A stretch of DNA of 61,315 nucleotides, filler included. It is 6 parts of 6 records of this genome, joined end to end, with 100 filler letters (N's around TTAATTAATTAA, not from the genome) between each part and the next. Parts side by side here need not be neighbours in the genome. Positions count along the whole stretch, not along the records: positions 1 to 13,043 come from SRR7504441_882; 5 more parts are not named here. One strand, given 5' to 3'. Numbering within the stretch: position 1 is the first letter of the stretch; every line of letters starts with the position of its first letter. Below the pieces are notes generated by a model. That model ran no database searches, was not told where the DNA came from, and saw only the letters and a program-made list of their open reading frames with translations. The translations under genes and the position numbers were made by a program. This document shows, in pieces, positions 6,570 through 52,036 of the stretch.

Positions 6570-7318
6570 TTATGCCGTGAGCGTCGCTCTCTCGTGCCCC
6601 GGGAGCTCCGGCTTGTGCGGGCTCGGGTCGCGATTCTCAGCTCGCCGCAGTTGGAAGTAGACGTGTACATGCTCGACATCGAACGAGCGACTCCCGCCGT
6701 TGTCGTCATACCCCCAGGCTACACAGTCCGGGAGGTTAGAAGCCAGCCAGTCCTCAACATACTCCTCGATGTCTTGTTCGGTCATCTCTTCCCGGCACCA
6801 TAGCGTCCAGTGCTCCACCCCGTCCGGGCAATCGTACGGGAACTTGTTGGGCTCCAGGCACCACTGCCTGCCGGCCAACACTGTGCTAAGTATGAAATCC
6901 TCCCTGTTATCGAAGCGCGGGTCGTCGTCCAGATCGTCCATGTGCTCCAGTTTGCGCTTCTTGCAATCGGGGGTTCGGTCCCAGTATTCGACCTGAACCA
7001 CCAAGACCTCAGACGACTAGGGTGGGGGAGGGGGGAGAGGGGATCACCTCTAGAGTGCGCTTGGACGCCTTCCGCTTGCGCGAGGGGCCGGTGCTGCAGC
7101 TCGTGGTGACCGAGCCTGCCGCGGCCGAGAGTCAAGAGCCGCCGGTCGAGGGGCGGGGGGGGGAGCGCACCGGCGGCCGAGGATGAGCACGAGTCACATG
7201 AGCCGAGGCTCCTCGGGGATTGGTCGCCGCACTCGCTCTGTCCTGAGGACACAAGGGGACTACTAGCCCGCCCGGGTGGGGCCGCCACGGGGGACGCCTT
7301 GGGATCTTCCAAGGCCAT
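6570..7318 (-). CDS. DUF3605 (GIG1-like) HIT-related protein, 3 exons
   Basis: NKFPY...VEHWTLW...SRSFDVEHVHVYF motifs; two GT-AG introns connect ATG 7318 to ORF 6570..7004. Confidence 0.7.
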
Positions 7319-7435
7319 GTCCAGAACCTTCGCTCGGAATTTGGAAGCTCGCGGCAACGGAATCATCATCTGGGGCTCACAGCAGCAGCGGCGGCGGCAA
7401 AGCACACTGCGGCAGCGGCGGCGGCCCCGGACCGA

Positions 7436-10400
7436 ATGTTCCCGCTGGTCCGGGTCAACTCGCGCTGCCCGGCGTTCATCCGGGAGCAGGAGGCCGCCGC
7501 GCTCGGCTCCATCCTGGGCGATCAGTTTGAGTTGCTCTCTGCCGGCAACTCGTCCGACGGCGGCTGGGTCGGCGCCGCGCTGGTCCGCTGGCACTGCCCA
7601 CTCGGGGGCGGCCAGCGGTTCGAGCTGGGGCTCGAGCTGCACGCTGGGTACCCGGACGCCCCGATCGGCCTCCAAGTCCGCGCTGTGCGCGGGGCCTGTG
7701 CCGACGCGCACGCGCTGGCCGCACATCTAGCAGAGTACGCGGCCGGGCAGTGCCCTCGCGAGCACGGGTTTGCGGTCTGGTCGGAGGCGGTCGACTGGAT
7801 GGGCGCGCACCAGCCGGCGGCGTCCGAGCCGCCCGCCGAGCCCGCTGCGCCCGAGTGCATGTGGATAGGGCCAACCGAGGTGGCTGCGGCCTGGGGCGAA
7901 TCGGGCCCCGGGAGCGGGCTGGTTCTGAGCACAGTCCGGCTGTTTGTGTCGTCGACCTTCGCCGATTTCAAGGCGGAGCGAGCGGCGTTTGAGCGCGAAG
8001 TCTACCCCGCGCTCAGGCGGCTCTGTGCCGAACAAGGGTGCAGGCTGGAGCTTGCGGACCTGAGGTGGTCGATTAGAGACGAGGACTGCCTGTCCCACCA
8101 GGTGCTCCCGATCTGTCTGCAGGAAGTCGACCGGTGTCGCCGGCTCTGCCCGGGAGTCTTCTTTGTCTGCCTGCTCGGGCAGCGGTACGGATGGCGGCCT
8201 CTCCCGCCTAGGCTGGCAGAGGCCGAGTGGAGTGCCCTCCAGCGCTCAATCAGCGCGCCCCAGAGAGCGCTGATGGCACGGTGGTACCAGCAGGATAGCA
8301 ACACACTCCCACGCAGCTGGCGGCTCCGCAGAGTGCAAGGCTGCTCCGCGAGTGAGTGGGCCAGGACCGAGCGACTGCTAGGCGACGCAGTCTTCTCCCA
8401 GCCACAGCACGGGCGCTCGGTGACCCAGCGGGAACTGATGGCCGCCGCCTCGCGGATTGGTGAAGCCCCGGGGTGCTTTGCGTTTGTGAGAACAATCGAA
8501 GGGATTCCGGAGGCGGCTGAAGGGTTCAGAGATTTAAAGCTCGGAAGTACAAGGCCTGACATACAGGCCGGCCACCTGCAGCGGGAGCTAGTTGACTGCC
8601 AGCTGCCGTCGCTGCTCCCCGCCGACCAGATATGTCGGGTGCGAACGCAGTGGGACCCGGGGTCCTGCCAGCCCAGCCCACAGCATCTCCAACCGCTCTG
8701 TCGAGCCATGTTCGCCACGCTAGCCTCGGCACTTCGTGCCCAGATTCGCAGCGCAGGGGTGGCTGGGATGGCCGCCGATGAACCGGCCAGTCACTCGTGC
8801 TTCCGAGACCAGATCTTGGAGCGCGGGTTCGTGGGTCGTGAGAGCGAGCTGCAGCGGCTGCTTCGATTCTTCCAGGGGGAGGGGGACGGGCCGAGGGTTG
8901 CAATCCTGCACGGGGAGCATGGGTCGGGCAAGACCGCCCTGCTGGCCAAGACCATCGCGCTGCTCACTAAAGGCTGGTCGCTCCGCCGTTGCCAGTCCGA
9001 CCCCAACTTGCAGGAGCAGGAGCAGCTTCGGATATCGCTGGTCGTCGAGAGATTCGTTGGCGCCACGCCATCCTCGTGCGACACAGTGTTGCTCGCGAGC
9101 TCCATCTGTCAGCAGCTCGGGCACGCCTCAGCTAGCAGCAAGGAGCTCTTGCCCGAGGAGCTCCGCAGCGCCATGGAGGACTGGCTTAGGGCTGCTGCAG
9201 CGGCTGCCTGGCCTGCGGGGGTGGCGCTGGCCATAGATTCGCTCGACCAGCTCACCTCGCTTGACTGGCTGCCGCACGCTTCGGCGCTCCCGCCCAACGT
9301 CAGAATCCTAGTATCTGTGGCAAGCCAGTCAGCTCAGTTTGGTGAGGCGCGAGAGCTGTGGCCGACTGCCGAGCTGATCGAGCAACAAGAGCTCAGTTGC
9401 ACTGACCGGCTCAAGGTTGTGCTCGGCCGGCTCCGGCGGCGCAAGCGGACCATTACAACCAGCCAGCAGCAGCTCGTGGACTCGCACCTGAGCCAGTGCG
9501 GGCTCCCGCTGTACCTTTCGATCATCGCTGAGCGAGCGTGCACTTGGGCCTCGAGTGATGTCATCACCTCAGCGGCGATTGGCGACTCAATAGGCTCGGC
9601 CATCAGTGGCTTCTTCGCGTGGCTGCAGGACGAGCGCAACCACCCGCCCCGACTGCTGCACAACGCGCTCAGCTTGCTTGCCTGCGCCAAGAACGGGCTC
9701 AGTGTCGACGAGCTGAGCAAGCTGCTCTCCGATGACGAGCAAGTGTGGAAGGAATTGCTCGAGACCAGCTTCTCGGAGCCGTCCGAACGAGTGATCCCGG
9801 CCATGTGCCTCCAGCGACTGCTAGCCGACCTCGGACCGTTTCTCGTGGAGCGATTCACTGATGGCTGCATCGTGCTCGCGTTCTACCACGCCTGCTTCTC
9901 TATCCAGATTCGCAGCCTGTTCCTGGCCAAGCACGACAAGCTCCGCAGGCGGCACCAGCAACTGGCATCCTTCTTTGAGCACGAGAGGCGGCAATCCGCC
10001 CGGCCCTCGCTCCGTGTGCTCACCGAGCTCCCGTCTCAGCTGCTATGGGCAAGCGAGCTGGGCGAGCTCGGAACGCTCCTCTGTGATCTCAGGTTCATTG
10101 CAGCTATGCTTGAGTCCTCCAAACACACTGTGCTCATTCAGAATTATGACCAGCTGTTGGCACACAACGCCACGCCCGACGGGCTACGCGAGAGCGGCGC
10201 CCAGCTGCGGGCCTTTGTGGTGTCGGAGCTGCATTTGCTGCTGCACAAGCCCTCGTTGCAGCTGCTGCTCGGTCTGGCACTTAACAGCCCGTTCCAGGCC
10301 GCGCGGACTGCAGCGCACGCCGTGTTTGGCTGCAGTGAGACGGGGTCGATGCTACTGCTCGAGGTGCTGAACAAGGCGGACCAGTGGGACAGGTCGGCGC

Positions 10401-12914
10401 GCATCACCATACCTGTTTGTAAAAAGAGCATCAAACCAACCGCCAGCGCTCTGACCTCTCAGGTAGAAGGCTCTGTCAGCGGCGTGTGCTGACTGGTGGT
10501 GGTGTGCAGGCGGCTGAAAATTTGCCTTTGGGCTGTCCACAGGAGCTCATGCTTGGCACAGAGATTGCTGCCTGCTGTCTGCTTCCTGGCCCTTCAAATC
10601 TGGTGACTTTGCTGACCAGTGGCAAGGTGCAGCGCTGGTGTGTCACAACTGGCAAAGAGCTCAACTCGCTGTACTATGCCAGCCTCGGACGCGGGCGCGA
10701 CATCCAGGCGGCGCGGCAGTGCGTGGCAGCTCTATTTGAGGGCGGCACGGTCCTGATCGCGTCAGCATTAACCCTCGAGCATCGGTGCACTCTCCGAATA
10801 CCCATATTGCCGCGGTGCATTGCTCTCACGAACGACGAGCAGCTGCTGTTGGGCACGGCAGAGGGCAGCGTGTGCAAGCTGGCATTGCGGCCTCTCGCCC
10901 GGCGGCGGATGTCTGCCCGCGTGCACCGGTCGCAGTCTCAACCGCTGCTCAGTGCGAGCGCGGGATCGCGAGGAGGTTCAAGACCTAGCGAGAAGGAACG
11001 GATTGACATCTCTCTACACGCACTCGAGCAGCAGACCGCCCACACAGGGCGAGTCAACTGGATCAGCTGCTCTAGTTCGGCAGCATTCGCAGCGAGTGCG
11101 TCCTCTGACAACACAGTAATCGTTCACTCGCTAGCTGAGCCTGGTAGGCATGTGCTGCTCCAGGGGCACACGGCCGCAGTGCTCTGCTGCTGCTGGCACC
11201 AGCACGATAAGCTGGTCTCTTCCTCCACCGATGGGACGGTCCGAATTTGGATGCGACAGAGCGCCTCCAGCTGGAAATTGGTGAGCATCTGGAATTCGGA
11301 GGGTAAAATGCAATGGGTGAGCAGCGCGGCTGGCCGGGTTACTCACAGGCTTTCAGGTGCGGTTCTGTCCAGACGGGAATAGAGTGATACACAGCGGGGC
11401 CGAGGGGGCGATTCTAGTCTCCCGGCAGGACGGCGACTTGCTGCAGTTTATCAAGGCGCATGGGCTGAGCAGCTCACGGCTGCCGAGCTTTGTGGTGGAC
11501 GACTCAGTGATTGTGGTCGGCCGACACTCCGTCAAGTGCTGGCAGGACGCAGTAGGCCGGCATGCCCATTCGGCGGGCGACGCACCCCACCAGGCGGTGA
11601 CCCGGCTAGTCCCGGCCGGGATAGCGGCACTGGCCAACTCGAGAGTCGTCTGCGCTTCCAAGCTTGGACTCGAAGCGTGGCACGTTTCATCGAGCGCCGG
11701 TGCTCAGACCCTCACACGCGATGCCGCGCTGATAGAAGCCACGGGCGGTAGCAAGCCGGTGACTGCGGTGGGCTCCTCTGAGGACGGCAGTCTGCTCGGG
11801 GTCGGGTATAGCGAGGAGCTGCGGCTGTGGCGGATGGACGGGCGGCAGATGGTAGAGTTTGGGTGCGTCAGGCGGCATAGAGATTCAATCGTGTGTGTGG
11901 CCTTCTCTCCCGACCGCTGCTTTGTGGCGACCAGCTCGAAGGACTCTAGCATCAAGCTGTATAGCCTCCCCGAGCTGTTAGAGACGGCCACTCTGGCCCA
12001 TGAAGCCCACCACTGTGTCGAGGTGCGGCAAGTAGCGTTCGATCAGGACTCAATCAGGTGTGCGCTCCCTAGATCGTTGCCAGCCCTGACTGGCTGGTGC
12101 TGTCAGATTAGCTTCGGTGACCACCGAGGGCCAGCTGACTGTATGGCTTGGGCGCCCGTTAGTCACCGAGCGGCTGGTCCGTTCAGACCACTCCGAGCAG
12201 CACCCAGCGAGCACCTGCACCGCCGCCAAGTTCGGGCCGAACAATCTGCTCGTCTCTTGCCACACCGACAGCACGTTGAGGGCTTGGCAAGCTGAGGACG
12301 GGGCCGACGGAGCTATTTGGGTCCAACTCCGCGAGTGGCGCGATGTGGGGATTGTCAAGTCGCTGGCTGTATTGCCGACCTGTGGCCCGCTACTTGTGGC
12401 GGCTCTGTCAGCCGAGACAGCCCTAGTGCTAGACCCGATGACGGGAAGAGAGGCGTGTCGGTTCAGTGCAACCGACACGTTGCGCGCCGTTTCCGCAGTC
12501 TGGCTGCCTGCAGGGATTCAGGAGGAGATGCATTTAATCCTGGGCGGCGTGCTTGTCTCGGACCTGGTCGTGCTTAGACTGATTGGCGCTAAGAGCGCCT
12601 CCGCCGTGTTTGCTCGAGCCCGTGGGCAGTACTCGGGTGCGGATGCAGAGCAAGCGCTTTCGAATGACCGGTGGCTCGGCGAGCGGCGGAGGCCTTGTCT
12701 GCGGGCATGGGAGCACTATGACGAGAGCAACGGCGGGGCGTGGCACGGGTACTCGAGCAGGGTGCAAGCGATCTTCCAAAGGAGCGAGCAGGCGGGGGTG
12801 GAGGTCTTGCAGTTCAGCTGCGCGAGCGGCGAGTACAAGGCTGATCTGCAACGGATGTTCCACGTTAACTTGCAGACTCGAATTAAGAGCAGGATGCGGC
12901 CGGTAATAAGTTGA
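7436..12914 (+). CDS. STAND/NLR-like protein with RWD-DUF4062-NACHT-WD40 repeats-WWE architecture (~1780 aa, 4 exons; NWD/TEP1-like core)
   Basis: RWD (EQEAAALGSILGDQF...GYPDAP); DUF4062 (LFVSSTFADFKAER...DLRW...CLQEVDRC...LLGQRYGW); Walker A GEHGSGKT; Walker B AIDSLDQL; WD repeats (GHTAAV...LVSSSTDGTVRIW; HRDSIVCVAFSPD...SSKDSSIKLY); WWE (WEHYDESNGGAWHGY...YKADLQRMFHVNLQT). Removing introns 10463-10509, 11317-11356 and 12058-12106 gives an open 5343-nt frame. Confidence 0.85.
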
Positions 12915-13043: not shown

Positions 13044-13143
13044 NNNNNNNNNNNNNNNNNNNNNNNNNNNNNNNNNNNNNNNNNNNNTTAATTAATTAAN
13101 NNNNNNNNNNNNNNNNNNNNNNNNNNNNNNNNNNNNNNNNNNN
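13044..13143. other. Artificial contig-joining linker
   Basis: N run + TTAATTAATTAA (stops in all six frames) + N run, 100 nt. Confidence 0.98.
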
Positions 13144-14505
13144 CAGCAGTGCAGAGAATGCCAGCAGCAGCAATGGTACTATCAACCAGACGGCGGCGCC
13201 GTCTTTAGCACCCACAGTCAATAGTACCAGTGCTCCATCACACCAGCCGACCCAGAGGCCTTGCGTGGTCCCAAGCTACGGAGAATGGAAGTCTGGCTAC
13301 GGCGACTGCACTACTTATGCTGATGGCGGCGCGAACAATGCATTCTGTGGGAAGGCAAGTGAAATGGATCGAGAAGAAGTACGTGTGGACGATGCATGTG
13401 CTCAGTGCGGCCACTGCAGTGCTGCGGCCACAGTCCAGACTCGACGGCCCACAGGCGAGCCCACGCACCAACCCACACCACAACCTACACCACAGCCCTC
13501 GATGCGCAGCAAGTGTCTGGCCCCAGACAGCAATACGACTTGCTCAGGCCACGGCAATTGCATAGGCGATTCTTGCTTCTGTGAAATTGACGGTGGCTAC
13601 CAAATGCCGTATTGCGGTACCAGCGCCTGCTCAGAGCTGTTTGATGTGTGCTTTGCTTGCAGCTGAATCCCCTTGCCGTGGAGGCTGCTCCGGGCATGGA
13701 ATCTGCGAGACTGCCACAGGCTTCTGCCAGTGTCAGTTCAGGTGCTCCTCCTGTTGACTTTAGTGCTCACCTGACTGGCAGATGGGCCGGCATTGCGTGC
13801 AGTGTTCCAGTGCCCCGCAATTGCCCCGGAAATTGCTCGTGGCCACAGGGCGGGACATGCGATCCCAAGTTCGGACAGTGCGATTGCAACCCCGGTTTTG
13901 AAGGTGTGGACTGTGGGATGACTATAGCCAAGAGCTGCCCTTCAGCGGTCGTAGGCCAAGTATGCTCGAACCGTGGAATCTGCGATGCGTCCACTGGAAC
14001 TTGTATCTGCAACAAGGGCTACAGTGGACCAGGCTGCTCGAAGGGTTGCCCAGCATTTTGCAATGGGCATGGCGATTGCAACGAGGCCACCGGCTGGTGC
14101 AACTGCTTTGATGGCTTCATCGGTGTGAGCTGTGATGCCAAGCCCGTGTGCGATAGCGTAGACTGCAGTGGGCATGGGTACTGTCTTGCAGAGAGCGGCC
14201 AGGCTGTGTGTCACTGCGACTCGCTGTACTATGGTGAGTACTGCGAGCTCAAGATGCAAACCGAGCAGCCGACCACCTCCTCACCCACCCGGGCTGAGGT
14301 GGACCTGTCAGAAAAGAATCTGGATAGCGAGGTCTCACAGATGCGCTGGCGATCAACCACGCTTGTGTACTGGCTCGTTGGGGCTGGGGCTACATTGATA
14401 GTAATAGGCATTGCGCTTTTCTGCTTCTGCCGTCGACAGCATACTGGGGGGTACCGACAGGCTAGCATGAAAGAAGTCTACGTCGAGCTCTCACAGTCAG
14501 GGTGA
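13144..14505 (+). CDS. EGF-repeat (tenascin-type) single-pass membrane protein, 5' partial
   Basis: Repeated CSGHGxC...CxCxxGxxGxxC units, a PT-rich linker and TM segment LVYWLVGAGATLIVIGIALFCFC followed by RR; intron 13617-13662 and one near 13742-13780 restore the EGF spacing. Confidence 0.8.
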
Positions 14506-20056: not shown

Positions 20057-23000
20057 ATGGCAGGGAACTCACCAGGGGGTGGTGCAGACCCTCGGTTCCT
20101 GCAGGCCAAGCTGCGGCAGGCCGTCGCGTTGGCAGCCAAGCTCCGACGGGAGGGCCGGCTGTCTGAGGCGCGTGAAGTGGATGGGATGGTGGCCACATTG
20201 GAGCGCGGGGTCCAGCTCAGCAGCCAGGGCCCGTCGGCCAAACCCACCGCGCCCCCGCCCCCGCCTGGCCCCCCACCGAGCAAAGCCGAGCGCGTGCCAT
20301 GGGATCCGACCCAGGCCGAGCCAGAGCAGCTGCACCAGGTCTGTGCGGAGGTGATGGCCATCGCAGGTCGGAGCACCGGCTCTGTGACCAAGTTGGGGCT
20401 TGGGGCCTACCTGCCCGCCTCGCCATACGCTGAGCTGGGCCAGTGGCTGCTCCGCCGGTTCTTTGAGTACGACGCTGACCACGACGGGGCCCTCCAGCTT
20501 CCGGAGCTGCGCACCGCGGTCAGCGACTTCCGGCAGGCGGCGCTGGAGGCAGGGGAGCAGCACGAGCGGCCAGCCGCCAGGAGCAAGCCGCGCGCCCGGT
20601 CAGCCCGGGGTGCCCGGCCGAGCGGGTCGGCGGTCCAGCTCCGGAAGCAGCTGCAGGAAAGGGTCAGTCCGCAGATGCAGCGCCAGATCCGGCGACGGCT
20701 GGAGCACTACCCAGCAACGGCAGCGGAGCCCGAGCCAGCAGCTGCCGACAGCGGGGACACAGGCAGTGCCTCGCCGGAGCCGGAGTTCCGCACGCCGCAG
20801 GAGCGGCCGGGCAAGGGCATGGCTGTGTCCCGCGGGCTCGGGATGCTCGGGACGATATGCGGGCTGGCCGACCAAGCCGGGGACGGCTTCGATCAAATGC
20901 TAAATCAAGTCATGGCCGGTCAGCCGCCCGAGCCGCCCTCGGCGCACGAGGTGCAGCTGGCTGGACAGCTGTCGAGCTGGGGCACTCGGACGGGCTCGTC
21001 GCCGTCCGCTCTGGTGCCCAGTTGGGAGTCCAGCGACCGGCTCACGCCACGAGCCGAGTCACCTGAGCCGCCGTTCGTGACCCCGCGGGTGCCGGAGAGC
21101 CCGATCGTGGGCGAGCTGCTCGAGGCCGAGCAGAGCCCGGAGGCCGGGCCGAGCCCTGCGGAGAGTGAGACTGTGGAGTCCAAGCAGCTGGTGGCCAGTT
21201 CGGGGCTGTTCAGCCGAATCGAGGAGTTTGACTTCAACATACCGTGCAGCCAGCTGAGCGAGGCCGCGCTGGAAGGGCTGGTAGACCAGGTGAGGCAGTT
21301 TGTGGACAGCACCGGCGAGCAGCTGCACGTGCTGCCTTCGTCCAACCGGAGGGTGAGGAAGAAACTGCTGCACTGCCGGCAGCACGCGAGCAGGCAGCTG
21401 AGACTGCTCGAGGCAATCCGGGCGGGAGGCCAGATCCAGGTCGAGCTGCACGACGTGTTCGTGCAGCCTGAGCTCTGGCCCGGGGTGCTCGTGAACAAGG
21501 CGGCTACTGCGATCTCGGGCGGCTGGTTTGCCCAGGTGTCTGGCGGTCATGATTGGCTGGCTAACACTAGTGGTACAGGGGCAGGTATCCGGGGGTCTGA
21601 TATCCGACAAGACACGCCTCAAGAGCGTCAACTTGTTCCAAGTGGTGCAGCAGGCATCAGCTGGTGGCTGGCTGGCTGCTCACTGGCTGGCAACAGATCA
21701 TGCAGCAGCATCCTCAGTTTGCGATCGACCCAGTCCTGGCCAAGCACAAATACTCGCCGCCTCTGCTGCCTGGGCTACCTGAGGCCGACCAAGCCGCTCT
21801 GTTTGCCGACACTTCGGTCGGGTTTAGAGTCAAGTTGTTGCACAAGACACTCAACAAAATGAGGCGTGAAAGTGGTCTCGAATCCAAGCTGGGTTCGATG
21901 GAAAGCCTGCAGGCGATTGTGTTTGAGCTCATCAAAGACGGTGTCGATGTAGCCGCTCTGGGCGAGGATGGCAAGAGTCCCCTGCAACTTGCACTGGAGC
22001 TGCCTGTGCCGTACAGTGTTCATATTGGGCTGCAGCTGCTAAGGCACGGGGCGCTCAAGCCGAGTCAAAATATGCAGGTTGGCACGGAGCATCCCTTCAA
22101 CATGGCATTTTCCGCAATGGCACGTGCAGCAGAGCCCGACAAAGAGCTGCTCTCGCTGCTTGTGGTGGCGATGATTGCGAATGGAATGCCGCTGGAGGAT
22201 TCAGAGGGCCACGAGATCCCAATCCCTGCAGGAGCACCACTTGAGCTCGCATCCAAAGCTGGGCAACTTAAAGTGGTCGAAGCTGTGCTTGCTCACACTC
22301 AACGTGTTCCAGAGTTGGCGTTACACTCAGCAGTGTCAGAGCTGGCTCAGCTGTGCTCCGACAAGTATCTCGGGCTGTCTGGCGGAGGTCAAGCCGAAGC
22401 CATCAAGACGCGGATGGTGTTTCTGGATGAGCTGTGCTCAACACTGCTCGAAGCAGGCGCCAAGGTACCAGATGCATTTTGACCGTGCTAATGGTTTGTT
22501 GCAGGTGGACACTGTGGTTGGTGGTTGCACAGCTCTGGACCTGGCAGTGGATTGTGGCTACAAGGCTCTGGCAGTAGCGCTGCTGGCTCACGCAGCACAC
22601 CCCAATGGTGGCAATTTACACTCCCTCCCTCACTACATTGTACAAGAGATGGCCATCAACACTGATCAGAGCCGAGCAGTGTTTCTGGAGCAGATGCTGA
22701 TGCTGCTGGTTGCATACGGTGCTGAGGTCAACAAGCAGGATGAGGGTGGGCTCCTGATGGAGCAGCTGTTGCGCTGTGGCAACCGATCCGGAGTGGAGAT
22801 GGTTCTTGCAGCACCGCAGCTAGAGCTGGATATTCATCTCAGTGCTGCAGCTCAGTTTGTGGCTGAGAGTGATCCAATCACTGAGCTTGGCACTGACACA
22901 ATGTGCCTGTTGCTAAGGAAGGGTGCCGAGCTCAAGGACTGCGACGCCCTGCTTGCTTCTCTGATTACGCACCCTGCTTCCAGCGAGGAGCTTGTCATGT

Positions 23001-26000
23001 TGCTGGTGAAGCAGGCACGCGACCATAACCCAGAAACCATGGTGCGTCCGTGCTGCCCACCGCCTGCAGGGCTGACTTCATTGGCGCAGGTGGCAGCACT
23101 GGATCAGGTCATGGCTGAGCTGGCTCTCCCAGAGATTGCTGTCGCAGACAAGGCTCGGCTTGACCACATTGGGGCAATGATTGTAAATGCTGGAACACTT
23201 GTCAATCAGCGTGAGCTCCAGCTTCAAAGAGCTCTCGATGCAAGGGCGCACAAGCTGACGCACGCAATCATTAGCAAGCAGGGTGATCTTGATCTATGGG
23301 TTCCAACCATGACGCTCCTCACTGATGTCGTCCAGCGCGCTGAGGCTGCTCATGAGCAACATCACGAGGCAGTGGCGAGGCTAAATGAGATCGGCGCAGA
23401 CAGAGTCAAAGCTTCCAATCTCAAAGGTGGACGGGCAGACAGGGTTCTTGCTATTTTGAACCGCGAGGAGAAAGAGCTACAGAAGCAACTCCAGGAGATA
23501 CCTCAAGATGACGTGCTTCAGGAGGACACCGAGACAGCAATGGCTATGCTGAGAGGAATTCAAGAGAACAATATCCCTGTCCCTGCAGGCAGTGACTGCG
23601 ATGCAGAAGCTATCTCGTTGGCTCTTCGGCATGGTAGCCACGAGCTGTTGGAGCTTGTACTTGGGTCTGCGCGACCAGAGGCTAGGAACCAAGCCCTGGC
23701 ACACATTACGATGCAGATCTTGGACCAGAAGAACCCGCCTACTGTGGCAGCTCGTTCTTACCTGCTGGGAATTCTGCAGTCTTGCTTGCTGCACTGGGCT
23801 GATCCTACTGCACCTGCTGCCCAGCTTGGTAGTTCTGCACTGGCAGCTGCAGTTCAAGCTCGGGATGAGGACTGCCTTGGTGCTCTAGTAAGCAGCAGCG
23901 TGGGCGCCGCCCACCAGAACACTGTGATCGCACTATTTGAGCAGCTGGTTCAAGCGCGTGATGCGCATGGGGTGGCCAGTGGAGAATTTCAGATGCTGCA
24001 TAGAACCCTGCGCAAGGCGATCGATGGTACTTGGGTTAAGCAGACGATCCGCGATGAGAGTGGCTCTAAGAACATCAGCACAGCACTCGCAACCAAACTC
24101 TTGGCTCGCTCATGTGAAGACGGGCTCACTGAGCTTGCAGTGTTGCTTCTGGAACACGGTGCATCGCCATCTGGCGGCAGTAATTTATTGGACCAAATGC
24201 TGCTCAGCAGTCATCGTGATGACGATCCAAACGCACTAGAAGCAGCAGCAATAGTTGCAGAGCATCTTTTGAAGGCAGGTGCGGATCTAGACGCCGCAGA
24301 TGACCTTGGTCAGCGCCCTATCGAGGTGGCTCTTCAGATTGGGGCGTACAAGGTGGTGATGACTTTCCTGGAGTGGCCTTCCATTGATCTTTCGAAGGGT
24401 CACCTCATATACTCTCTAGTGCAAGATATGGACTCTGTCCCAACAGATACCGAAAAGTGGGAGCTGATGCAAGAAACTCTCGATAAATTGATAGAAGCAG
24501 GAGCTCCAGTGAACCAGCCTGGCCCTGAAGGGTATAACCCTGTCGATCTGGCCATCTGCCTGGGGGACGAGGACCTGGTTTGGCTGCTTGAGGTGGCTGG
24601 GGCCAACACACGGCTTGGCTTTCCTGTGCATGCTGCGCTGTCACAGCTCTCTTCACTCTCTTCAACACCAACTCCTGCAGCACCAGGTGGACTCCTATTC
24701 CCCCTCTGTTGAGTGCAACCTTAAGGCACATAACTGTAAATGCAAATGTTTAAAGCCATTGTCCGAATGTTGGGGCTTGTGACAGGTGAGAAGATTAAGA
24801 GCGCCTCGTTGGTTTTAGCCCTTGAGTTACTCGGCTGGGACCATGATGGATTTGTGGGCTCAGAAGAATTCCAAAGGTGTCTTGTGCAGGACTTGAGCCG
24901 AACACTTGATGTGCATCCTGCACGTGTTCATGTTGGTCAAGTGGATATACAGGAAGACTTTTTCGAAGTTCCATTCTCTGTAGCATCGGTAGAATCTTCT
25001 GGTGATGAGGTGGAGGAAGATGACAGACGAACACCCGAGGTGCTAAAGATGACCTTGATTGAGCTTCTGCTGAACCCCAAGGCAAAGGCCGCAAAAACTT
25101 TCTTCATGGGTGGAGTCACTAGTGGAGTACATATGGACCACACGATCAACTTGCTGCTTGGTCAACACCCTAGTTTCCTTGTGCGCAAAGTGCTCAAGCT
25201 GCTGCAGCACGGGGCTTCGGTTGGCAAGCCAGAGAGTGCAGAACACACGCCATTAATGCTGGCTGCAGTGTTAGGTCAAAGGGTGATTGCCAGAACAATT
25301 GTTACCAATGCGGGGAATCAACTTTCGATGGAGGATGCCACAGGAATGATGGAATTATGGCTGAAGAACCCTCTTGGCGATTCGCAGCTGGTGGACGAGC
25401 TGATTGGAGGGGTGATTGAGCAGGCAAAAGCCTCAATCGAGGAATTGCAGTCATTATTCACCCAGGCATGTAAAGCAGGCTTGCTCCACTCTTGCCAGCA
25501 GCTGCTTGCACGAGGAGTAGACCCGCAGGACGGGGATAATCTCAACACTGTCCTCATGATGCTGGGCAAATTTCCTCAGTTACCATACCCAGAGATTGCC
25601 AATGAGTTGCTGGAGCATGGTGTTGACCCGAATCGCGCTGGAGACAAAGGTCTCACTCCTCTGGAAGTGTGCCTGGGAGGTGGCAGCACCTGGCCTCACA
25701 GGAACACAAGTCAGATTGCGGCTGCAGGAACACTGGTCAAGCATGGCGCTGATTTCAACGATGAAACCTTTAGGCTAGCGCTTGCAAACTGGGATAATGC
25801 CACAGAAACTCATGTGGCTGCATCGCTCGAACATCTCATCACTGAAATGGTCGTACAAGGCGTCAACTATTTGATCTTCACAGAGGATGGACGCTCTGTA
25901 GCTGAGCTTGCTGTCGAGAAGCGAAGCTTGAACATCACGCGCGCTGTGTTGAAGGCTCAAATTAAGGTGTGGCAGAGTGCACAATCGGAGTCAGGCGCAT

Positions 26001-28822
26001 CGGGTGCCATGTTTGGATTCGGAAATCTCGATAGCGATCGCAGTGGGGCGGTGGAGCTTAGCGAACTGGTGGCACAGTTTGGTTCTACCCAAGCTCAGAC
26101 CTTACTCGCTACCCTGGACACAGACAAGAACAATCTAGTGTCCCAGAACGAATGGATGCGCATGATTACGAGACCATTCATGGAACTGTTGATTCAAGAG
26201 TGCCGTGGCAGTGTGCAATCTGGCTTCCAATTCGCCGGCCAGGGTGACAAATTAGATTTTGGAGCCGAACTTGCATCAGCACTGACAGAGTCGGGGGAGC
26301 CTGCGTTGCATCAATTGCTACGAGAGTGCGGATTGAGGGCGCATGAATACATCAAATCTCTACTCCAACACTCAATCACTCCTGGAGAGGAAGGTGCTCT
26401 CAACTGCACCATTGACATTCGAGTGTTGGATACACTTGCTCCTCGCCAGACGTTGCTGCAGACTGTCTCGAGCTTGGGACTGCGTGAGGTGGGCTAAAAG
26501 GATTGCGCCCTCGTTGAGCTGTTGCCTTGCAGGTGTGTGAGATGTTGCTCAATCTCGGCGCGTCTGCTGTCAAAGAAGACGATTTTGGCAATTCTGCTAT
26601 TAGTCTGGCTGTCGATGGAGGGCGCCATGATACATTCACACTACTTGCTGAAAAGCTGGAGGGGCATGCACTCCCAAGCGGCTTGATTCTCCGAGCTGCT
26701 ATGGCTGCAGATGCGAAAATGGTGCGGATGGTGCACTCTGCCAATGCATTGGTGGATGAGCGCGGAATTTTTGGCCGAACTGGGCTCCATGCATGTGCCC
26801 AGCCTGGTCGACTCGGTGGTGGACGCAATTTCTATCAAGTAATACCAGATTCCTTTAAAGTGAACTCACTGTGTGATCGACGCAGGTGTGTGACGAGGCA
26901 CAACTGGTGCAAGTTGCGCAGACTCTGCTCGATTTAGGGGCCACAGCAAACATGAAAGATGATGATAACGCGACTCCGTTGCTGCTTGCTCTACAATCTG
27001 GCTACATGCAGGTTTCAGCCTGTCGAATTTGTTGCATTACTTGTTATGTGCATGAGGCAAGATATGCTGAATTCATCTGTCGCAGGTTGCTCAATTGCTG
27101 ATCGAGTACGGAGCTGATCCCCTGATTGCCAATTCATCTGGTGTAAGCGCATTAACTCAAGCCATCACCTCGAACTGCCCGTCGGCCCTGATGGATCAAA
27201 TGCTCTTTCAATGTTCTAAGGCTGAGCTTGCAAGAGACGAACGAGCTATGGTGCTGGCAGTAGCTTGTGGAAACTCCTCTGTCCTTAAGCACCTGCTCAC
27301 AGTCAAGGGCTCTGGTGCTGGCCAGCAACTTTACTGTGGCTGGCCACTGGAATGGTGGGCTTGCTTCTACGGCCAAGTTGCTCTCGTCAGCGAGTTCATG
27401 GCGTCTCAAGGCGGCAACATCAGCTGGATTGATCCTACCAGTGGGCGAACTGTGCTACACTGGCTTGCATTGTGGCGTGCACCCAAACTGGCTTCGTCTC
27501 ATGCCAATTTGATTGCAAAGCTTGTTGCATCGAGTGCTGTGCCAGTTCATCAGGCAGATAGGTTTGGTAGGATTGCTTCGGAGCTAGCTTGTGATGCTGG
27601 AAACAGCGCAGCGTTGAGCGAGTTCCCAGCAGAGCAACAGCAAGCGCCATCTAAAAAACCCGGTGGCTGGTTCAGTGGTCCCCCAGTGGCTGCTTCGGCT
27701 GCTCCAGTGGCCACAGCATCGCCAACTCCAGACATGCTTCATATCGTGGCTTGTGAGGAGAGTGCAAGCTCTGAAGCAGCTGCTGAATATGCCGAGCAGA
27801 AGAGCTGCCTGATGTCAGACCCGGAGTTCCCGTCTGTGATTGACTCGCTTGCGCACTGCGATGTGCCTGCCGATCCACTTCTAGCCCGTGTGCAATGGTT
27901 AAGAGCTAGTCAGCTAGGAAACTGCTTGTTCAGTGGACAAGGCACAAATGGGGCGCTAGAGGTGGGTTTGACAGGGAAGTGCTGGTTCTGGTGTGCAGTG
28001 GCACAAATGGATCAAATGGTCATTCGTGGCATGTTTCAGAGCACAGCTGTCAATGCGCGAGGGTATTACAAGATTAAGTGCACGTGGGCTGGGGAAGAAC
28101 ATCTGGTAATAATTGACGATAGGATCCCATGCATTGATCAGCAACCAGCTTTTGGGCGGGTGGGTTCGCCTGATGAGATTTGGTCATTGCTTTTGTGCAA
28201 AGCTTATGCTAAGCTTGCTGGGTCTTACCAGCAGCTTTTCGAGCTGAGCACAGAGCTCATAAGTGAGTGGTCGCAGTCGCTTATACCAGCTCTGCTGAAA
28301 ACTGTTCACTTGGAAGATACTGTACAGGATGGTGGGGTGATGCAGCATAGGCTAATGGAGCAATCGCTGGCGCCTTTGCTTGGTCTGTCTCAGATGCTGG
28401 AAGCTAGATCACCCATGCTGGCTGACTCTAAGGGCAAGGTAGAGGCAGTGAAGTTAGCTAAGGAACTTGCGGGGGTGGTGATGGCAGCAGATGCGGGGAC
28501 ACGCCCATCCAGTCAGCCTCAGTTGTCGGCGCAGCTGCCACAGTTTGAGCTGAACTGCTCAGCCGCATGTGATTTAGCAGTTGTTGTGAACGGAAACGCT
28601 CCGCACGACCTCTACCTTACAGTCACAGGTGTGGATGGCAGCAGTGCAGGTAGGTTGGAGCTTGAAGACCTCCAGTCGGAGTCAGGGCAGAGTTTGGCGC
28701 TCACCACTTCTAAGAATCCATACACAGTTATTGCTCACACAGAGAGGCAATTGAGCGTGATGCCTGAGTTCTATCTTGACTTCCAAGGTTCCAAACAGAT
28801 CACGGTCGCCATGAAGCCATAG
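20057..28822 (+). CDS. Very large multi-exon EF-hand/ankyrin-repeat protein with C-terminal partial calpain (CysPc) domain
   Basis: EF-hands DADHDGALQLPE, DSDRSGAVELSE and DTDKNNLVSQNE; many ankyrin motifs (GRTGLHACA, ATPLLLALQSGY, GRTVLHWLA); calpain-like DPEFP...WLR...GKCWFW...IIDDRIPC...EIWSLLLCKAYAKLAGSY; ORF pieces join through about 7 introns. Confidence 0.75.
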
Positions 28823-31522: not shown

Positions 31523-31622
31523 NNNNNNNNNNNNNNNNNNNNNNNNNNNNNNNNNNNNNNNNNNNNTTAATTAATTAANNNNNNNNNNNNNNNNNNNNNN
31601 NNNNNNNNNNNNNNNNNNNNNN
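31523..31622. other. Artificial contig-joining linker
   Basis: N-TTAATTAATTAA-N, 100 nt. Confidence 0.98.
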
Positions 31623-34268: not shown

Positions 34269-36050
34269 CTAGGAACTTGTCGCACGCCGCACCAACTCGA
34301 CCGCGTCATCGGCACAACCCCACGCCAGAATCACGCCCACATCGCCGTGGCCATAGTTGTGAACAACTGGCGGCCCGCTCGCGAGCTCCTCGAGCTCCAC
34401 TCTCGCGCCCGCCACTCTGAAAGGCCGGAACCCTACCCTTTCACTGACTAGGCTGCACTCACGCAACGCTGGGCACCACGCAGCTACTTGCCGGAGGAGC
34501 CTTTTGCTGAGCTCAGGATCAGCTAGCTCCCGGCTGTCGTCCGGATACTTGCAGCCACCGACAATGCAGGTCCCGTTGCCCTGTGGGATGGCATGTATCG
34601 GGTGCTGCTTGTCCCCCGTCATCAGGCTAAAGAAGCAGGTCTGCTCCGGCGCGTGCACCAACACCGTCTGGCCGCGCACGGGAATCATAGTCTCGTCCCC
34701 GACTAGCTCGCGGCAGCCCAGCCCAGCACAGTTCACAATTGCCGCCACCGGCTGTCGCGATGGCACGAGCGCGGCTTCCGCGAGGGAGCTCACCGCTCGA
34801 GTGATGAGCGAAGCGCCCCCCTGCTGCAGCCGCTGTCGCAGGCAGGCCAGGTACGCGTGCATGTCAGTGCACAGTGTCCGGAACGCCACGCCACCCGCCA
34901 GATCGGCGCCAACATCGCGGACCCCTGCTGGAACATCGACCGCATCCCACGCGCCATCGCCTGCCCGCAACTCACGGAAGCTCGGCACGAACTGCGCGAG
35001 CGAGGTCTCGCCGCTTACAATCGGTTCCATCCCGTGGGGCGCCCCCTCGCTTGTGTAGAGTCTGACGCCCTCCCGCAGCTGGGTGAAGCCCGCCCCGCCC
35101 TCCGCGTCTTCCAGCATCACTGCGAAACTGCGGTGCGCCCAGCGCTTATAGAGCGGGCCCGTAAAGCCTGCCGCCTCCGAGCCGTACCCTCGGCCATAAG
35201 TCGGATCCGGGATAAACCAGCTCGCAGCGCTATGCGAACAAGTGTGATCAAAACTCTCAGCCAGGACTGTGACACTTGCCCCTGCCTCCTGCAGCCGTAA
35301 CGCCGTGCTGAGCCCGATGATCCCGCCGCCGACCACCACTATCTCGCCGGCACCGGCCAAAGAGGGAGGCGCCGGTGGCCTCGGCACAATGTGGTTTGCG
35401 AGCTCAACCAATGCATCAATCGGATCCAGCAGCACAGCACCGGACGGGCACCACCCCGGCGGCAGCAGCTGCGGAAAGTCTGTGCAGCCCAGCACCAGCG
35501 CCTCCGCGCCGCGAGCCACCAGACCCTCCAGGATCTCCACCAGTCGCGGCTGCGGCTGCGCCACGATAATGCCCTTGCAGTGCTCAATCATGCGCTGCAG
35601 CTCGTCCTGTTCCGACGGCACGGGCACAACCAGCTCCCAGCGGTCGCTAGCGTACAGCCCGGATCTGGTGCTCATGCTTGTCGCGACCAGCCCGACCTTG
35701 CTGAAGCTCTCCAGCTTGAGCCGCGTGGCGCCTACCATGTCTAGCATTGTCAGCCCGGTTTGCGCTTCGAAGCGCGGCCGCAGAAGGTGCATAGTGTTGC
35801 ACGCGATCATCGCCGTTGTGCAGCCGAGCTGCCGGGCCTGTCGCCCGAGCCGCACAAGCTCCGCCAGGTTTTGGTCCGCCGCCTCGGGTGAGGACGAGTA
35901 AACCGCCAGTCCTGGCGTCGAGAGCTGCACCAGCGGGCGGCGGGGATAGCGCACGCTGAAGCGTGTATAGACGTCAATTGCCACGCGCCCCCAGTTGCCG
36001 CTCAGGTGGCACAGAGCCGCCTCCTCGGCCGAGTCTACCCCCGCGGGCAT
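34269..36050 (-). CDS. Fusion of Asp/Glu amino-acid racemase and FAD-dependent D-amino-acid oxidase, 593 aa, intronless
   Basis: Racemase catalytic-Cys motifs IACNTMH and LGCTDFP; Pro-rich linker PRPPAPP; DAO motifs VVVGGGIIG, IVNCAGLG, PVRGQ, GFRP and HNYGHGDVGVILAWGCA, all in one open frame. Confidence 0.88.
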   Translation of the reverse strand: MPAGVDSAEEAALCHLSGNWGRVAIDVYTRFSVRYPRRPLVQLSTPGLAVYSSSPEAADQNLAELVRLGRQARQLGCTTAMIACNTMHLLRPRFEAQTGLTMLDMVGATRLKLESFSKVGLVATSMSTRSGLYASDRWELVVPVPSEQDELQRMIEHCKGIIVAQPQPRLVEILEGLVARGAEALVLGCTDFPQLLPPGWCPSGAVLLDPIDALVELANHIVPRPPAPPSLAGAGEIVVVGGGIIGLSTALRLQEAGASVTVLAESFDHTCSHSAASWFIPDPTYGRGYGSEAAGFTGPLYKRWAHRSFAVMLEDAEGGAGFTQLREGVRLYTSEGAPHGMEPIVSGETSLAQFVPSFRELRAGDGAWDAVDVPAGVRDVGADLAGGVAFRTLCTDMHAYLACLRQRLQQGGASLITRAVSSLAEAALVPSRQPVAAIVNCAGLGCRELVGDETMIPVRGQTVLVHAPEQTCFFSLMTGDKQHPIHAIPQGNGTCIVGGCKYPDDSRELADPELSKRLLRQVAAWCPALRECSLVSERVGFRPFRVAGARVELEELASGPPVVHNYGHGDVGVILAWGCADDAVELVRRATSS

Positions 36051-36186
36051 TGTCGATTTGGCAGATTTATCCGTTAGACTTCTCCATGTGCGGAGTCCAA
36101 GGCGCTTGGAGAGGTGCTCCTGGCTGGTGCAAAGGGCGCCCGATGGGCTGCTGGCCGCTTCTGGCCACCTACAGACCCATAATAAG

Positions 36187-39945: not shown

Positions 39946-40045
39946 NNNNNNNNNNNNNNNNNNNNNNNNNNNNNNNNNNNNNNNNNNNNTTAATTAATTA
40001 ANNNNNNNNNNNNNNNNNNNNNNNNNNNNNNNNNNNNNNNNNNNN
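39946..40045. other. Artificial contig-joining linker
   Basis: N-TTAATTAATTAA-N, 100 nt. Confidence 0.98.
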
Positions 40046-46710: not shown

Positions 46711-46810
46711 NNNNNNNNNNNNNNNNNNNNNNNNNNNNNNNNNNNNNNNNNNNNTTAATTAATTAANNNNNNNNNNNNNNNNNNNNNNNNNNNNNNNNNN
46801 NNNNNNNNNN
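46711..46810. other. Artificial contig-joining linker
   Basis: N-TTAATTAATTAA-N, 100 nt. Confidence 0.98.
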
Positions 46811-48187: not shown

Positions 48188-48245
48188 TGTGAGAGCGAGT
48201 CTGAGGCGTTCGTGAATTTCCGTTGCCGACCTCTTGTCGTACCAG
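48188..48245. promoter_or_regulatory. 58-nt spacer between divergent start codons (RPL3 and the HEAT-like gene), containing TTCCGTTGCCG
   Basis: ATG(-) at 48187 and ATG(+) at 48246; the same 11-mer (as CGGCAACGGAA) lies at 7352-7362 in another divergent spacer. Confidence 0.55.
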
Positions 48246-51936: not shown

Positions 51937-52036
51937 NNNNNNNNNNNNNNNNNNNNNNNNNNNNNNNNNNNNNNNNNNNNTTAATTAATTAANNNNNNNN
52001 NNNNNNNNNNNNNNNNNNNNNNNNNNNNNNNNNNNN
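51937..52036. other. Artificial contig-joining linker
   Basis: N-TTAATTAATTAA-N, 100 nt. Confidence 0.98.

Follow-up and report, generated by a model that had tools for sequence, protein, structure and literature searches.

The stretch of DNA analysed here (the window, 61,315 nt with its filler letters) is from a GC-rich eukaryote and carries, at 7436..12914, one gene with four exons on its plus strand (Table 1). The frame is restored by three GT-AG introns, and the joined exons (5343 nt) encode 1780 residues with one terminal stop, which reproduces the coordinates, length and intron number of the preliminary description. Exon 1 ends in CAG, followed by the donor GTAGAA at 10463. At two of the three junctions an alternative splice site also keeps the frame (acceptor 10542, donor 11281), so that the protein length is 1757–1780 residues depending on splice choice. 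The 33 nt between both candidate acceptors of intron 1 are intron-like, with a GC3 of 0.45. GC3 lies between 0.69 and 0.90 across every coding part (0.90 in the RWD-like part, 0.75 in the WWE tail), compared with 0.65 upstream, where periodicity is absent, and 0.47 downstream; the periodicity sets in at about position 7400. Very small introns are normal here, since an RPL3 gene elsewhere in the window has a 49-nt GT-AG intron whose position is fixed by homology.

Table 1. Features of the gene and its surroundings (positions along the window).
Feature	Position	Strand	Basis or remark
Start codon ATG	7436	+	
Exon 1, 1009 codons: RWD-like, TIR-like DUF4062, NACHT, winged helix, helical domain	7436..10462	+	open frame from ATG
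RWD-like domain (E2 fold, without catalytic Cys motif), residues 16–119	7481..7792	+	Pfam RWD
TIR-like DUF4062, residues ~165–345, catalytic motif included	7928..8470	+	Pfam; TEP1 TIR alignment
Predicted catalytic E333 in S328-V-T-Q-R-E333	codon 8432–8434	+	alignment to 11gz
NACHT/AAA_16 P-loop NTPase, residues 465–630	8828..9325	+	Pfam
Walker A, GEHGSGKT	8912–8935	+	intact
Asp601 codon of Walker B, ALAIDSLD	9236–9238	+	intact
NWD1-type winged helix-turn-helix, residues 741–836	9656..9943	+	Pfam HTH_NWD1, 31.6 bits (cut-off 27)
APAF-1-like helical domain, residues 863–954, weak	10022..10297	+	APAF1_C, E 0.0045, 17.3 bits, under cut-off
Intron 1, GT-AG, 47 nt (80 nt with acceptor 10542)	10463..10509	+	
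Exon 2, WD40 repeats (alternative bounds 10543, 11280)	10510..11316	+	Pfam WD40, 45 bits; GC3 0.69
Intron 2, GT-AG, 40 nt (76 nt with donor 11281)	11317..11356	+	
Exon 3, WD40 repeats	11357..12057	+	Pfam WD40, 41.8 bits; GC3 0.74
Intron 3, GT-AG, 49 nt, phase 2	12058..12106	+	
Exon 4: final WD40 blades, linker, WWE, stop codon	12107..12914	+	single open frame
WWE, last 68 residues but six	12708..12893	+	Pfam WWE
Stop codon	12912–12914	+	
Artificial contig spacer, N44-TTAATTAATTAA-N44	13044..13143	.	130 nt past stop codon

Against the last exon being a separate gene speaks intron 3, which interrupts one WD40 blade (VAFDQDSI-R-LASVTTEGQLTVW); exon 4 therefore cannot be standalone. Its frame holds WD40-type strands (TTEGQLTVW, CHTDSTLRAW) together with the WWE domain, and no Met precedes these strands. 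Frames, introns and the single stop thus fit one gene, with the RWD-like and WWE domains in the uninterrupted frames of the core. As the gene is located at the end of its contig, the content downstream represents unproven synteny.

The core is of the NWD/TEP1 type, as proposed previously and as now seen from Pfam domains, homology search and tree. Pfam AAA_16 matches residues 465–611 with 43 bits (cut-off 32.6), while NACHT itself (residues 487–630, 21.9 bits) stays under its cut-off of 26.7. The Walker motifs had been described as intact, and the family alignment of 164 sequences bears this out, with G496 conserved in 162 of them and D601 in 163. The WD40 region spans about 740 residues. A search among length-matched proteins returned 157 matches with a top identity of 32%, and a search among longer proteins a further 49. 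In a FastTree phylogeny (164 sequences, 744 columns), the protein groups with two NWD2-like proteins from Haliotis and one protein from Diaphorina (SH-like support 0.945), on a long branch of 1.68. Judged by these comparisons, the core is that of a divergent STAND NTPase of the NWD1/NWD2 type, near the animal NWD2-like proteins. It shares with animal NWD1 and NWD2 the order DUF4062, NACHT, NWD1-type winged helix, helical domain and WD40, and identity to NWD relatives is about 28% over the core. However, several family-invariant residues are changed, and none of the NWD relatives checked has an RWD-like N-terminal domain; in a Haliotis NWD2-like protein, DUF4062 starts at residue 66.

The DUF4062 domain had been suggested as a possible enzymatic effector. 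This agrees with data in the preprint of Osinski et al. (2026, bioRxiv 10.64898/2026.05.01.722283), which presents DUF4062 as a TIR-like NADase yielding ADP-ribose. In vitro, TEP1 alone hydrolysed NAD+ in that work, whereas human NWD1 and NWD2, which among named proteins are the nearest to the window protein, were inactive on NAD+ and NADP+, as was NPHP3. Activity needed E1008 of TEP1 and E97 of KpSwz, and a TEP1 mutant with R908 replaced by Ala lost activity. In the window protein, Pfam DUF4062 matches residues 168–261 with 36.5 bits (cut-off 24.7), and the domain aligns with the TEP1 TIR structure 11gz_A with an E-value of 8.7e-13. Human numbering is obtained by adding 893 to the 11gz_A index, as checked by indices 15, 61 and 83, which are R908, R954 and R976. 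TEP1 E1008 is thus the second Glu of GRSVTEME, where the window protein reads GRSVTQRE with E333 as its last residue. This local match is short and not significant on its own (score −0.6), and the equivalence becomes convincing only through the family alignment, in which E333 is conserved in 163 of 164 sequences, T330 in 159 and S328 in 158. The Glu of CLQEV, to which attention had been drawn before, is E230. It is indeed retained (160/164), but the TEP1 alignment assigns the catalytic role to E333 instead. The putative NAD-cleaving head therefore keeps its catalytic Glu, and it also keeps E181, a YG motif and R250, the equivalent of TEP1 R976 (119/121). Other positions are altered. The equivalents of TEP1 R908 and R954 are Ala176 and Gln222, Gly212 of DLRWG (163/164) is replaced by Ser, and V241/F242 take the place of P/N at near-invariant positions.

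The two ends of the protein lie outside this core. For the head, RWD is the sole Pfam family matched, covering profile positions 3–109 of 112, with YPDAP at residues 72–76. The domain alone yields 21.4 bits and an E-value of 2.9e-4, just below the cut-off of 22.8, and the entire exon 16.3 bits. The order of five domains given in the preliminary description is hence present, with the reservation that its RWD member is sub-threshold. Among language-model clusters, those closest to this part are RWD (0.80–0.82), which is a lead only. A single-sequence AF2 model of this part shows a helix, three strands and two helices (pLDDT 57); it matched nothing (best Z 3.8) and is of too low quality to bear out the RWD assignment.

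The WWE assignment of the tail passes its Pfam cut-off of 21.1, scoring 23.2 bits within the exon-4 frame and 26.0 when the tail is taken by itself. The top PDB sequence matches are the WWE domains of TRIP12 (E 0.18) and DTX1 (E 0.73), with which the Trp, the GxW-xxY stretch, a Tyr and the distal Arg align. The AF2 model (pLDDT 50) is unusable. According to PMC11269756, a Gln contacts adenine through a double hydrogen bond in every solved WWE complex, and the binding strengths of human WWE domains lie at 22–709 uM for free ADP-ribose and at nM–uM for poly(ADP-ribose). In the window protein, however, the position of this Gln is occupied by His (RMFHVN).

An RWD or WWE end was found on none of the 169 retrieved relatives, and not one of 171 proteins compared has anything similar to the WWE tail. 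In 117 of 120 relatives, DUF4062 begins no later than residue 36. Scans of metagenomes and viruses, and one that exhaustively covered 1.84 billion proteins, revealed neither end domain on such a protein, and no close relative of either end domain was detected elsewhere in these searches. The five-domain combination, previously described as not seen before, thus occurs in no other protein searched. The window holds no second copy of the gene.

Several known systems resemble parts of the protein. TEP1 (vault/telomerase protein component 1) has the same DUF4062 fold family with S-V-T-x-x-E and the R976 position, and likewise has NACHT and WD40 after the TIR-like NADase domain (PDB 11gz). In contrast to TEP1, the window protein lacks TROVE and vWA domains and has about 70 rather than about 25 residues between RYG and the catalytic motif; TEP1 is also distant in the tree (patristic distance 5.4). 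The APAF-1 apoptosome shares an N-terminal effector, a STAND NTPase, a helical domain and C-terminal WD40 repeats that autoinhibit until ligand is bound, but its effector is a CARD adaptor, its NTPase is NB-ARC rather than NACHT, and it has neither WWE nor RWD. SARM1 and the bacterial DUF4062 systems Swarozyc and Evangelion are TIR-type NAD+ hydrolases that are switched by assembly and produce ADP-ribose, but are devoid of a STAND NTPase. SARM1 is activated by NMN/NAD+ at its ARM repeats. Osinski et al. (2026) report that the bacterial systems are triggered when an auxiliary domain binds a phage portal, and they draw the APAF-1 analogy for NWD proteins and TEP1. The WWE signature is shared with ubiquitin ligases and PARPs (RNF146, TRIP12, HUWE1, Deltex); unlike these, the window protein has no RING, HECT or PARP catalytic domain, and its WWE sits on the WD40 sensor of a STAND NTPase. 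PMC10450202 mentions a predicted E2-related RWD in the ADP-ribosyltransferases PARP6 and PARP8, and a paper that it cites describes WWE in its title as a module common to ubiquitination and ADP-ribosylation.

Taking APAF-1, TEP1 and SARM1 as analogues, we propose that the protein may be a ligand-gated, oligomerising NADase switch with a tail reading ADP-ribose or a nucleotide and an E2-like adaptor head, a reading to which we give a probability of roughly 0.5. The WD40 region, with WWE at its tip, would keep the NACHT module closed until a ligand opens it. Given the WWE domain, this ligand may be an ADP-ribose-type adenine nucleotide, with free ADP-ribose, poly(ADP-ribose) and an ADP-ribosylated protein as candidates. 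Nucleotide exchange and NACHT oligomerisation would then bring the TIR-like domains together. The RWD-like head may join this cluster and serve there as an adaptor of E2 fold, itself non-catalytic, for a ubiquitin/SUMO E2 or another RWD partner. Such a switch might serve in defence or cell death. On the other side of the balance are the silence of NWD1/NWD2 in vitro, Ala176, Gln222, G212S and the long branch, as well as the His in WWE, the RWD score and the two ambiguous splice junctions.

A less probable, though possible, reading is that of an oligomerising platform resembling animal NWD1/NWD2, with a silent DUF4062 and with RWD and WWE as protein–protein adaptors (e.g. for E2/E3 or a PARylated partner); the pathway served would be a housekeeping or developmental one and not defence. 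It would accommodate the in vitro results on NWD1, NWD2 and NPHP3 given by Osinski et al. (2026) and the part in purinosome assembly reported for NWD1 (PMC7186558), together with the altered DUF4062 positions, the missing adenine-binding Gln and the single copy in the window. However, the catalytic Glu with S-x-T-x-x-E, E181, E230, R250 and the YG motif have all been retained, which one would not expect if the domain were dead, given so long a branch. Moreover, STAND proteins at full length are usually autoinhibited, so that the silence of NWD1/2 is weak evidence. The preliminary description saw in the protein an immune-type receptor like integrated-domain NLRs. Read as an integrated decoy, its RWD and WWE would be bait copies of parts of the host ubiquitin/ADP-ribose machinery, so that a pathogen or virus effector attacking such domains would be caught and trip the switch. 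The restriction of both ends to this protein among the 169 relatives and the usual start of DUF4062 near the N-terminus form a pattern of late domain capture, and neither end has a detectable close relative elsewhere. Yet a bait is as a rule almost identical to the host protein it copies, whereas RWD and WWE are very divergent here, and the window shows no family expansion; we regard this explanation as improbable.

Compared with these readings of an intact protein and with the NADase switch that we prefer, an annotation artefact seems the least probable. The true start would be Met141 (ECMWIG...), with the RWD-like stretch an untranslated leader or chance frame, and/or the gene would be a decaying pseudogene with frame changes instead of introns. 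Long chance frames are common in GC-rich DNA, relatives begin 1–36 residues ahead of DUF4062 as a start at Met141 would give, and RWD falls below its cut-off. Nevertheless, the stretch matches 107 of the 112 RWD profile positions with no competing family, and nowhere else in the gene is GC so biased towards third positions (0.90 versus a GC2 of 0.54), a bias that starts upstream of Met141. At every frame change lies a GT...AG pair spanning 40–80 nt, comparable to the RPL3 intron, and coding GC3 is maintained throughout exons 2–4.

We examined the domain composition of the NWD-like protein, which is encoded by four exons, with Pfam profiles, comparing each score with the curated cut-off. The domains are listed in the Table together with the gene structure and other features of the window. 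The preliminary description had given the order as RWD, DUF4062, NACHT, WD40 repeats and WWE. DUF4062, WD40 and WWE exceed their cut-offs and the Walker motifs are intact (Walker A GEHGSGKT, Walker B AIDSLD; G496 is kept in 162 and D601 in 163 of 164 aligned core sequences), whereas the RWD and NACHT models stay below theirs. The DUF4062 domain is located directly N-terminal to the NTPase. A pattern count in exons 2–4 gave only five clear WD40 hallmark strands, so an estimate of two propellers is one from length only.

Table. Gene structure, domain assignments and other features of the window. Nucleotide positions refer to the window, residues to the NWD-like protein.
Feature	Position	Strand	Remarks
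Open frame	7247–10492	+	1081 codons; contains exon 1 of the NWD-like gene
Overlapping open frames	10423–11382, 11321–12295, 12090–12914	+	other phases
Intron 1 (predicted)	10463–10509 (47 nt) or to 10542 (80 nt)	+	GT...AG
Intron 2 (predicted)	11317–11356 (40 nt) or from 11281 (76 nt)	+	GT...AG
Intron 3 (predicted)	12058–12106 (49 nt)	+	GT...AG
RWD (PF05773, E2-fold clan), whole exon	residues 16–118		16.3 bits, cut-off 22.8
RWD (PF05773), domain alone	residues 16–119		21.4 bits, E 2.9e-4, under cut-off 22.8
DUF4062 (PF13271)	residues 168–261		36.5 bits, cut-off 24.7
AAA_16	residues 465–611		43 bits, cut-off 32.6
NACHT	residues 487–630		21.9 bits, under cut-off 26.7
HTH_NWD1 (winged helix)	residues 741–836		31.6 bits, cut-off 27
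APAF1_C	residues 863–954		17.3 bits, E 0.0045, cut-off 22.8
WD40, exon 2			45 bits, cut-off 27
WD40, exon 3			41.8 bits, cut-off 27
WWE (PF02825), in exon-4 frame			23.2 bits, cut-off 21.1
WWE (PF02825), tail alone			26.0 bits, E 1.2e-5, cut-off 21.1
RPL3 gene	46901–48581	-	two exons; 49-nt GT-AG intron at 47467–47419
Spacers	13044–13143, 31523–31622, 39946–40045, 46711–46810, 51937–52036		five, identical, 100 bases each, N44-TTAATTAATTAA-N44

Every phase change between the open frames of the gene falls at a GT...AG pair. The model with the short introns yields exactly 1780 residues and one terminal stop, the length reconstructed in the preliminary description; alternative in-frame splice choices give 1757–1769 residues. 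Introns of this size are normal in the assembly, as indicated by the 49-nt GT-AG intron in the gene for ribosomal protein L3, which alignment with ribosomal proteins of solved structure places between ...GITKG and KGFEGV.... The first 147 codons of the upstream RPL3 frame do not match L3, which makes an internal start or additional exons probable. RPL3 was also considered as a lineage marker and gave no usable signal, its best PDB matches being spread over fungi, animals, plants and apicomplexans.

Do the two end domains belong to the same protein as the core? The RWD-like stretch (residues 16–119) shares an uninterrupted frame with DUF4062 and NACHT, and the WWE domain shares one with the last WD40 strands (TTEGQLTVW, CHTDSTLRAW). 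That the last exon might be a separate gene had been raised previously. However, intron 3 falls inside a WD40 blade (VAFDQDSI-R-LASVTTEGQLTVW) and the exon-4 frame has no Met upstream of its WD40 strands, which excludes exon 4 as a separate gene. At the other end, translation might begin at Met141, just before DUF4062, which would leave the RWD-like stretch untranslated. Against this, third-position G+C is already 0.90 in the RWD part, compared with 0.65 without periodicity upstream of the ATG; it is 0.69–0.78 in the core, 0.75 in the WWE tail and 0.47 past the stop codon. As far as sequence can show, both end domains belong to the gene. Its stop codon lies 130 nt upstream of the spacer at 13044, and the gene is at the end of the first contig. 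On its other side, a DUF3605-family open frame (6570–7016, minus strand; 24.1 bits, cut-off 23.6) is arranged head-to-head with it at a distance of about 420 nt from the ATG, and the two may share a promoter region.

The core is of a known kind, an NWD/TEP1-type STAND NTPase. A search among length-matched proteins returned 157 matches, and the best among the 120 listed is 32% identical. The best length-matched relative covers about 73% of exon 1, namely all but the N-terminal 165 residues. A search among longer proteins added 49 matches, at most 31–32% identical over most of the query, among them NWD2-like proteins of Haliotis, TROVE proteins of dictyostelids, and TEP1 from lampreys and from a lizard. 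A midpoint-rooted FastTree phylogeny of the core (164 sequences, 744 columns) places the protein on a long branch far from TEP1, with two NWD2-like proteins of Haliotis and one protein of Diaphorina as its sisters (SH-like support 0.945); organism names are attached to only 24 of the 163 other tips. No second copy or paralogue of the gene was found within the window.

The end domains were not recovered on these relatives. Among the 120 length-matched relatives listed, DUF4062 begins no later than residue 36 in 117. Three retrieved proteins with N-terminal extensions (P0004, P0076 and P0080) were considered as RWD carriers and rejected, as the extensions consist of helical-repeat or low-complexity sequence; for P0004 the best BLASTP match had an E-value of only 4.9. 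A phmmer search with the N-terminus and the WWE tail against 171 stored proteins gave only two low-complexity matches, and neither PF05773 nor PF02825 was found among the matches listed in the precomputed Pfam assignments of 169 relatives. An exhaustive phmmer search of 1.84 billion representatives with the N-terminal 165 residues had only two matches, each broken into many short stretches (9 and 4) and neither with an RWD domain; both were discarded as low-complexity noise. With the WWE tail, a word-indexed search of proteins of 470–2000 residues confirmed none of 84 candidates, and the ESM Atlas returned no usable match. Metagenome scans confirmed none of 122 pattern matches for exon 4 and none of 305 for the N-terminus; a scan of viral contigs with exon 4 confirmed none of five.

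Other end domains do occur on related proteins. Among the stored proteins P0157–P0161, DUF4062-NACHT-TPR proteins of molluscs and echinoderms carry PF04300 at one end according to the precomputed lists, and a transcriptome protein, P0159, has PF18115, PF09038, PF21743 and PF18359. From these end domains, shuffling at the termini of DUF4062 STAND proteins seems frequent in invertebrates.

Only in 2026 was DUF4062 shown to be a TIR-like NADase; it is reported to produce ADP-ribose and nicotinamide, and to act both in a defence system of bacteria and in human TEP1 (Osinski et al., 2026; bioRxiv 10.64898/2026.05.01.722283). KpSwz E97 and TEP1 E1008 are described there as required, whereas full-length NWD1, NWD2 and NPHP3, human NWD1 and NWD2 among them, are given as inactive in vitro (Osinski et al., 2026). 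A second preprint places the putative catalytic Glu of a plasmid-borne DUF4062 defence family in an ‘acidic-SYT’ region (10.64898/2026.06.25.731849).

[quoted passage not shown] Adding 893 to the structure index yields the human numbering, because indices 15, 61 and 83 are Arg, as are R908, R954 and R976. TEP1 E1008 is the second Glu of GRSVTEME, and the NWD-like protein has GRSVTQRE at this place, which leads to Glu333; the local match of these two motifs is not significant when taken alone. In the 164-sequence alignment, however, E333 is found in 163 sequences, S328 in 158 and T330 in 159, and this S-x-T-x-x-E motif aligns across TEP1, NWD2-like, dictyostelid and bacterial members. E333 is the predicted catalytic Glu, equivalent to TEP1 E1008 and KpSwz E97. 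The Glu of CLQEV (E230), previously named in connection with a possible enzymatic role, is indeed conserved (160 of 164) but does not occupy the catalytic position according to 11gz_A and the alignment: it belongs to the helix that follows the BB loop and precedes the place of TEP1 E1008 by 35 residues. With the catalytic Glu at 333, the TIR-like domain extends to about residue 345, past the 82-position Pfam model. For NWD-type proteins this identifies the Glu of S-x-T-x-x-E, not that of C-L-x-E, as the residue to mutate, which is useful for activity tests of NWD1 and NWD2.

The equivalent of TEP1 R976 is retained (R250), while R908 corresponds to Ala176, where most NWD-type relatives also lack Arg, and R954 to Gln222. 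In DLRWG, Ser212 takes the place of a Gly that is otherwise invariant. Ala176, Gln222 and Ser212 would count against full activity of the TIR-like domain.

The RWD match spans profile positions 3–109 of 112 and RWD is the sole family reported for this stretch, yet it stays under the curated cut-off. RWD families make up the three nearest protein-language-model clusters (0.80–0.82), which by the calibration of the tool is a lead only. The canonical RWD topology is an alpha+beta sandwich with a helix, four strands and two helices. A single-sequence AF2 model of the head (pLDDT 57) shows a helix, three strands and two further helices, an order compatible with the RWD fold. With this model, Foldseek gave no match in the PDB at E up to 0.001, and the best Z in a wide VIA-align search was 3.8, to unrelated folds; the model being poor, these fold searches say nothing either way. 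A phmmer search of the PDB with the N-terminus had no hits at E up to 10. The lines that point independently to RWD, though weak, are consistent with one another and suggest an RWD-like head. By inspection, the head lacks an E2-type HPN-Cys motif. RWD domains are described as adaptors for Ubc9 and in other complexes (PMC10450202).

In the PDB, the WWE tail is closest in sequence to the WWE domains of TRIP12 and DTX1, with E-values of 0.18 and 0.73, respectively. In these alignments the first Trp, GGAW-xx-Y, the Tyr of YKADL, the Asn of xN and the distal Arg residues are kept, whereas the Gln of the MxQxN motif is replaced by His (RMFHVN). The RNF146 WWE uses Tyr107, Tyr144, Gln153 and Arg163, and the spacing of the Tyr, the His at +9 and the Arg at +19 in our protein fits these positions. 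In all solved WWE–ligand complexes the Gln of MxQxN is reported to contact the adenine ring through a double hydrogen bond, and human WWE domains are reported to bind free ADP-ribose at 22–709 µM and an 11-mer of poly(ADP-ribose) at 9 nM–13 µM (PMC11269756). Since the hallmarks are kept but the adenine-binding Gln is His, ligand binding by this WWE domain is plausible but not assured. The AF2 model of the tail (pLDDT 50, all-helical) was unusable.

The preliminary description had not met the five-domain combination before, and it still stands alone: none is described in titles and abstracts of the literature on DUF4062, NACHT, NWD1, RWD, WWE and integrated domains, and none emerged from the protein, metagenome and viral-contig searches. 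The words WWE and RWD are absent from the main texts of 10.64898/2026.05.01.722283 and 10.64898/2026.06.25.731849, the auxiliary domains being annotated in their supplementary figures. As far as searched, an E2-fold RWD head together with a WWE tail on a DUF4062-NACHT-WD40 protein is new, and so would be the pairing, in one switch, of a predicted ADP-ribose-producing enzyme with a domain of the ADP-ribose-reader type. Within these searches the gene is a singleton without an orthologue; one of its end domains is under the curated threshold and the other is without the key ligand residue.

It has been proposed that the WD40 domains sense a signal, whereupon NACHT oligomerization activates the TIR-like domain (Osinski et al., 2026). 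The NWD-like protein may likewise be an autoinhibited STAND switch, with the WD40 region and the terminal WWE as the sensor. Judged from the architecture, the most specific candidate input would be an ADP-ribose-class nucleotide, or a PARylated or otherwise ADP-ribosylated partner. Oligomerization driven by NACHT would gather the TIR-like domains, which would hydrolyse NAD+ through Glu333, and the RWD-like head may act as an adaptor. Since the product of the enzyme is itself a ligand of the WWE type, feed-forward activation is possible. In its boldest form this would make the protein both writer and reader of ADP-ribose: on sensing poly(ADP-ribose) or free ADP-ribose, the WWE would release the WD40 lock, the clustered TIR-like domains would burn NAD+ to more ADP-ribose, and the RWD head would recruit an E2. 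We give this reading a probability of roughly 0.15. If true, it would constitute a direct pathway from PARP to NADase-mediated death, or a self-amplifying, all-or-none collapse of NAD+ in a protist, and with an E2 recruited by the RWD head the same assembly would also attach ubiquitin or SUMO to targets.

In protists, fungi and invertebrates, STAND proteins commonly have shuffled domains at their ends. If the end domains are inert, the gene is one more such case among protist STAND proteins. With a domain of the ADP-ribose-reader type on its sensor side and an E2-like one on its effector side, the protein offers two testable hypotheses for NWD1, NWD2 and TEP1 proteins: on the input side, that an ADP-ribose-class nucleotide gates the switch; on the output side, that ubiquitin-like conjugation is coupled to NAD+ depletion.

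The DNA of the window is eukaryotic nuclear, with about 60% G+C. The spacers have stop codons in all six frames, and the window consists of separate contigs joined artificially, so that gene neighbourhood across spacers is not real synteny. Other genes include those for Gpi16, ribosomal protein L3, and calpain/ankyrin/EF-hand, EGF-repeat and cNMP-binding proteins. Three long consecutive frames at 22175–28822 (plus strand) encode ankyrin repeats, EF-hands and a calpain (Peptidase_C2) domain, and are possibly one very large gene. A frame of 805 codons (34269–36686, minus strand) carries an unusual fusion of an Asp/Glu racemase-type domain with an FAD-dependent oxidoreductase (DAO) domain. On the contig after the first spacer, and not on that of the NWD-like gene, the stretch 13145–14505 (plus strand) encodes PT repeats, then teneurin-like EGF repeats and, at the C-terminus, a probable membrane anchor.
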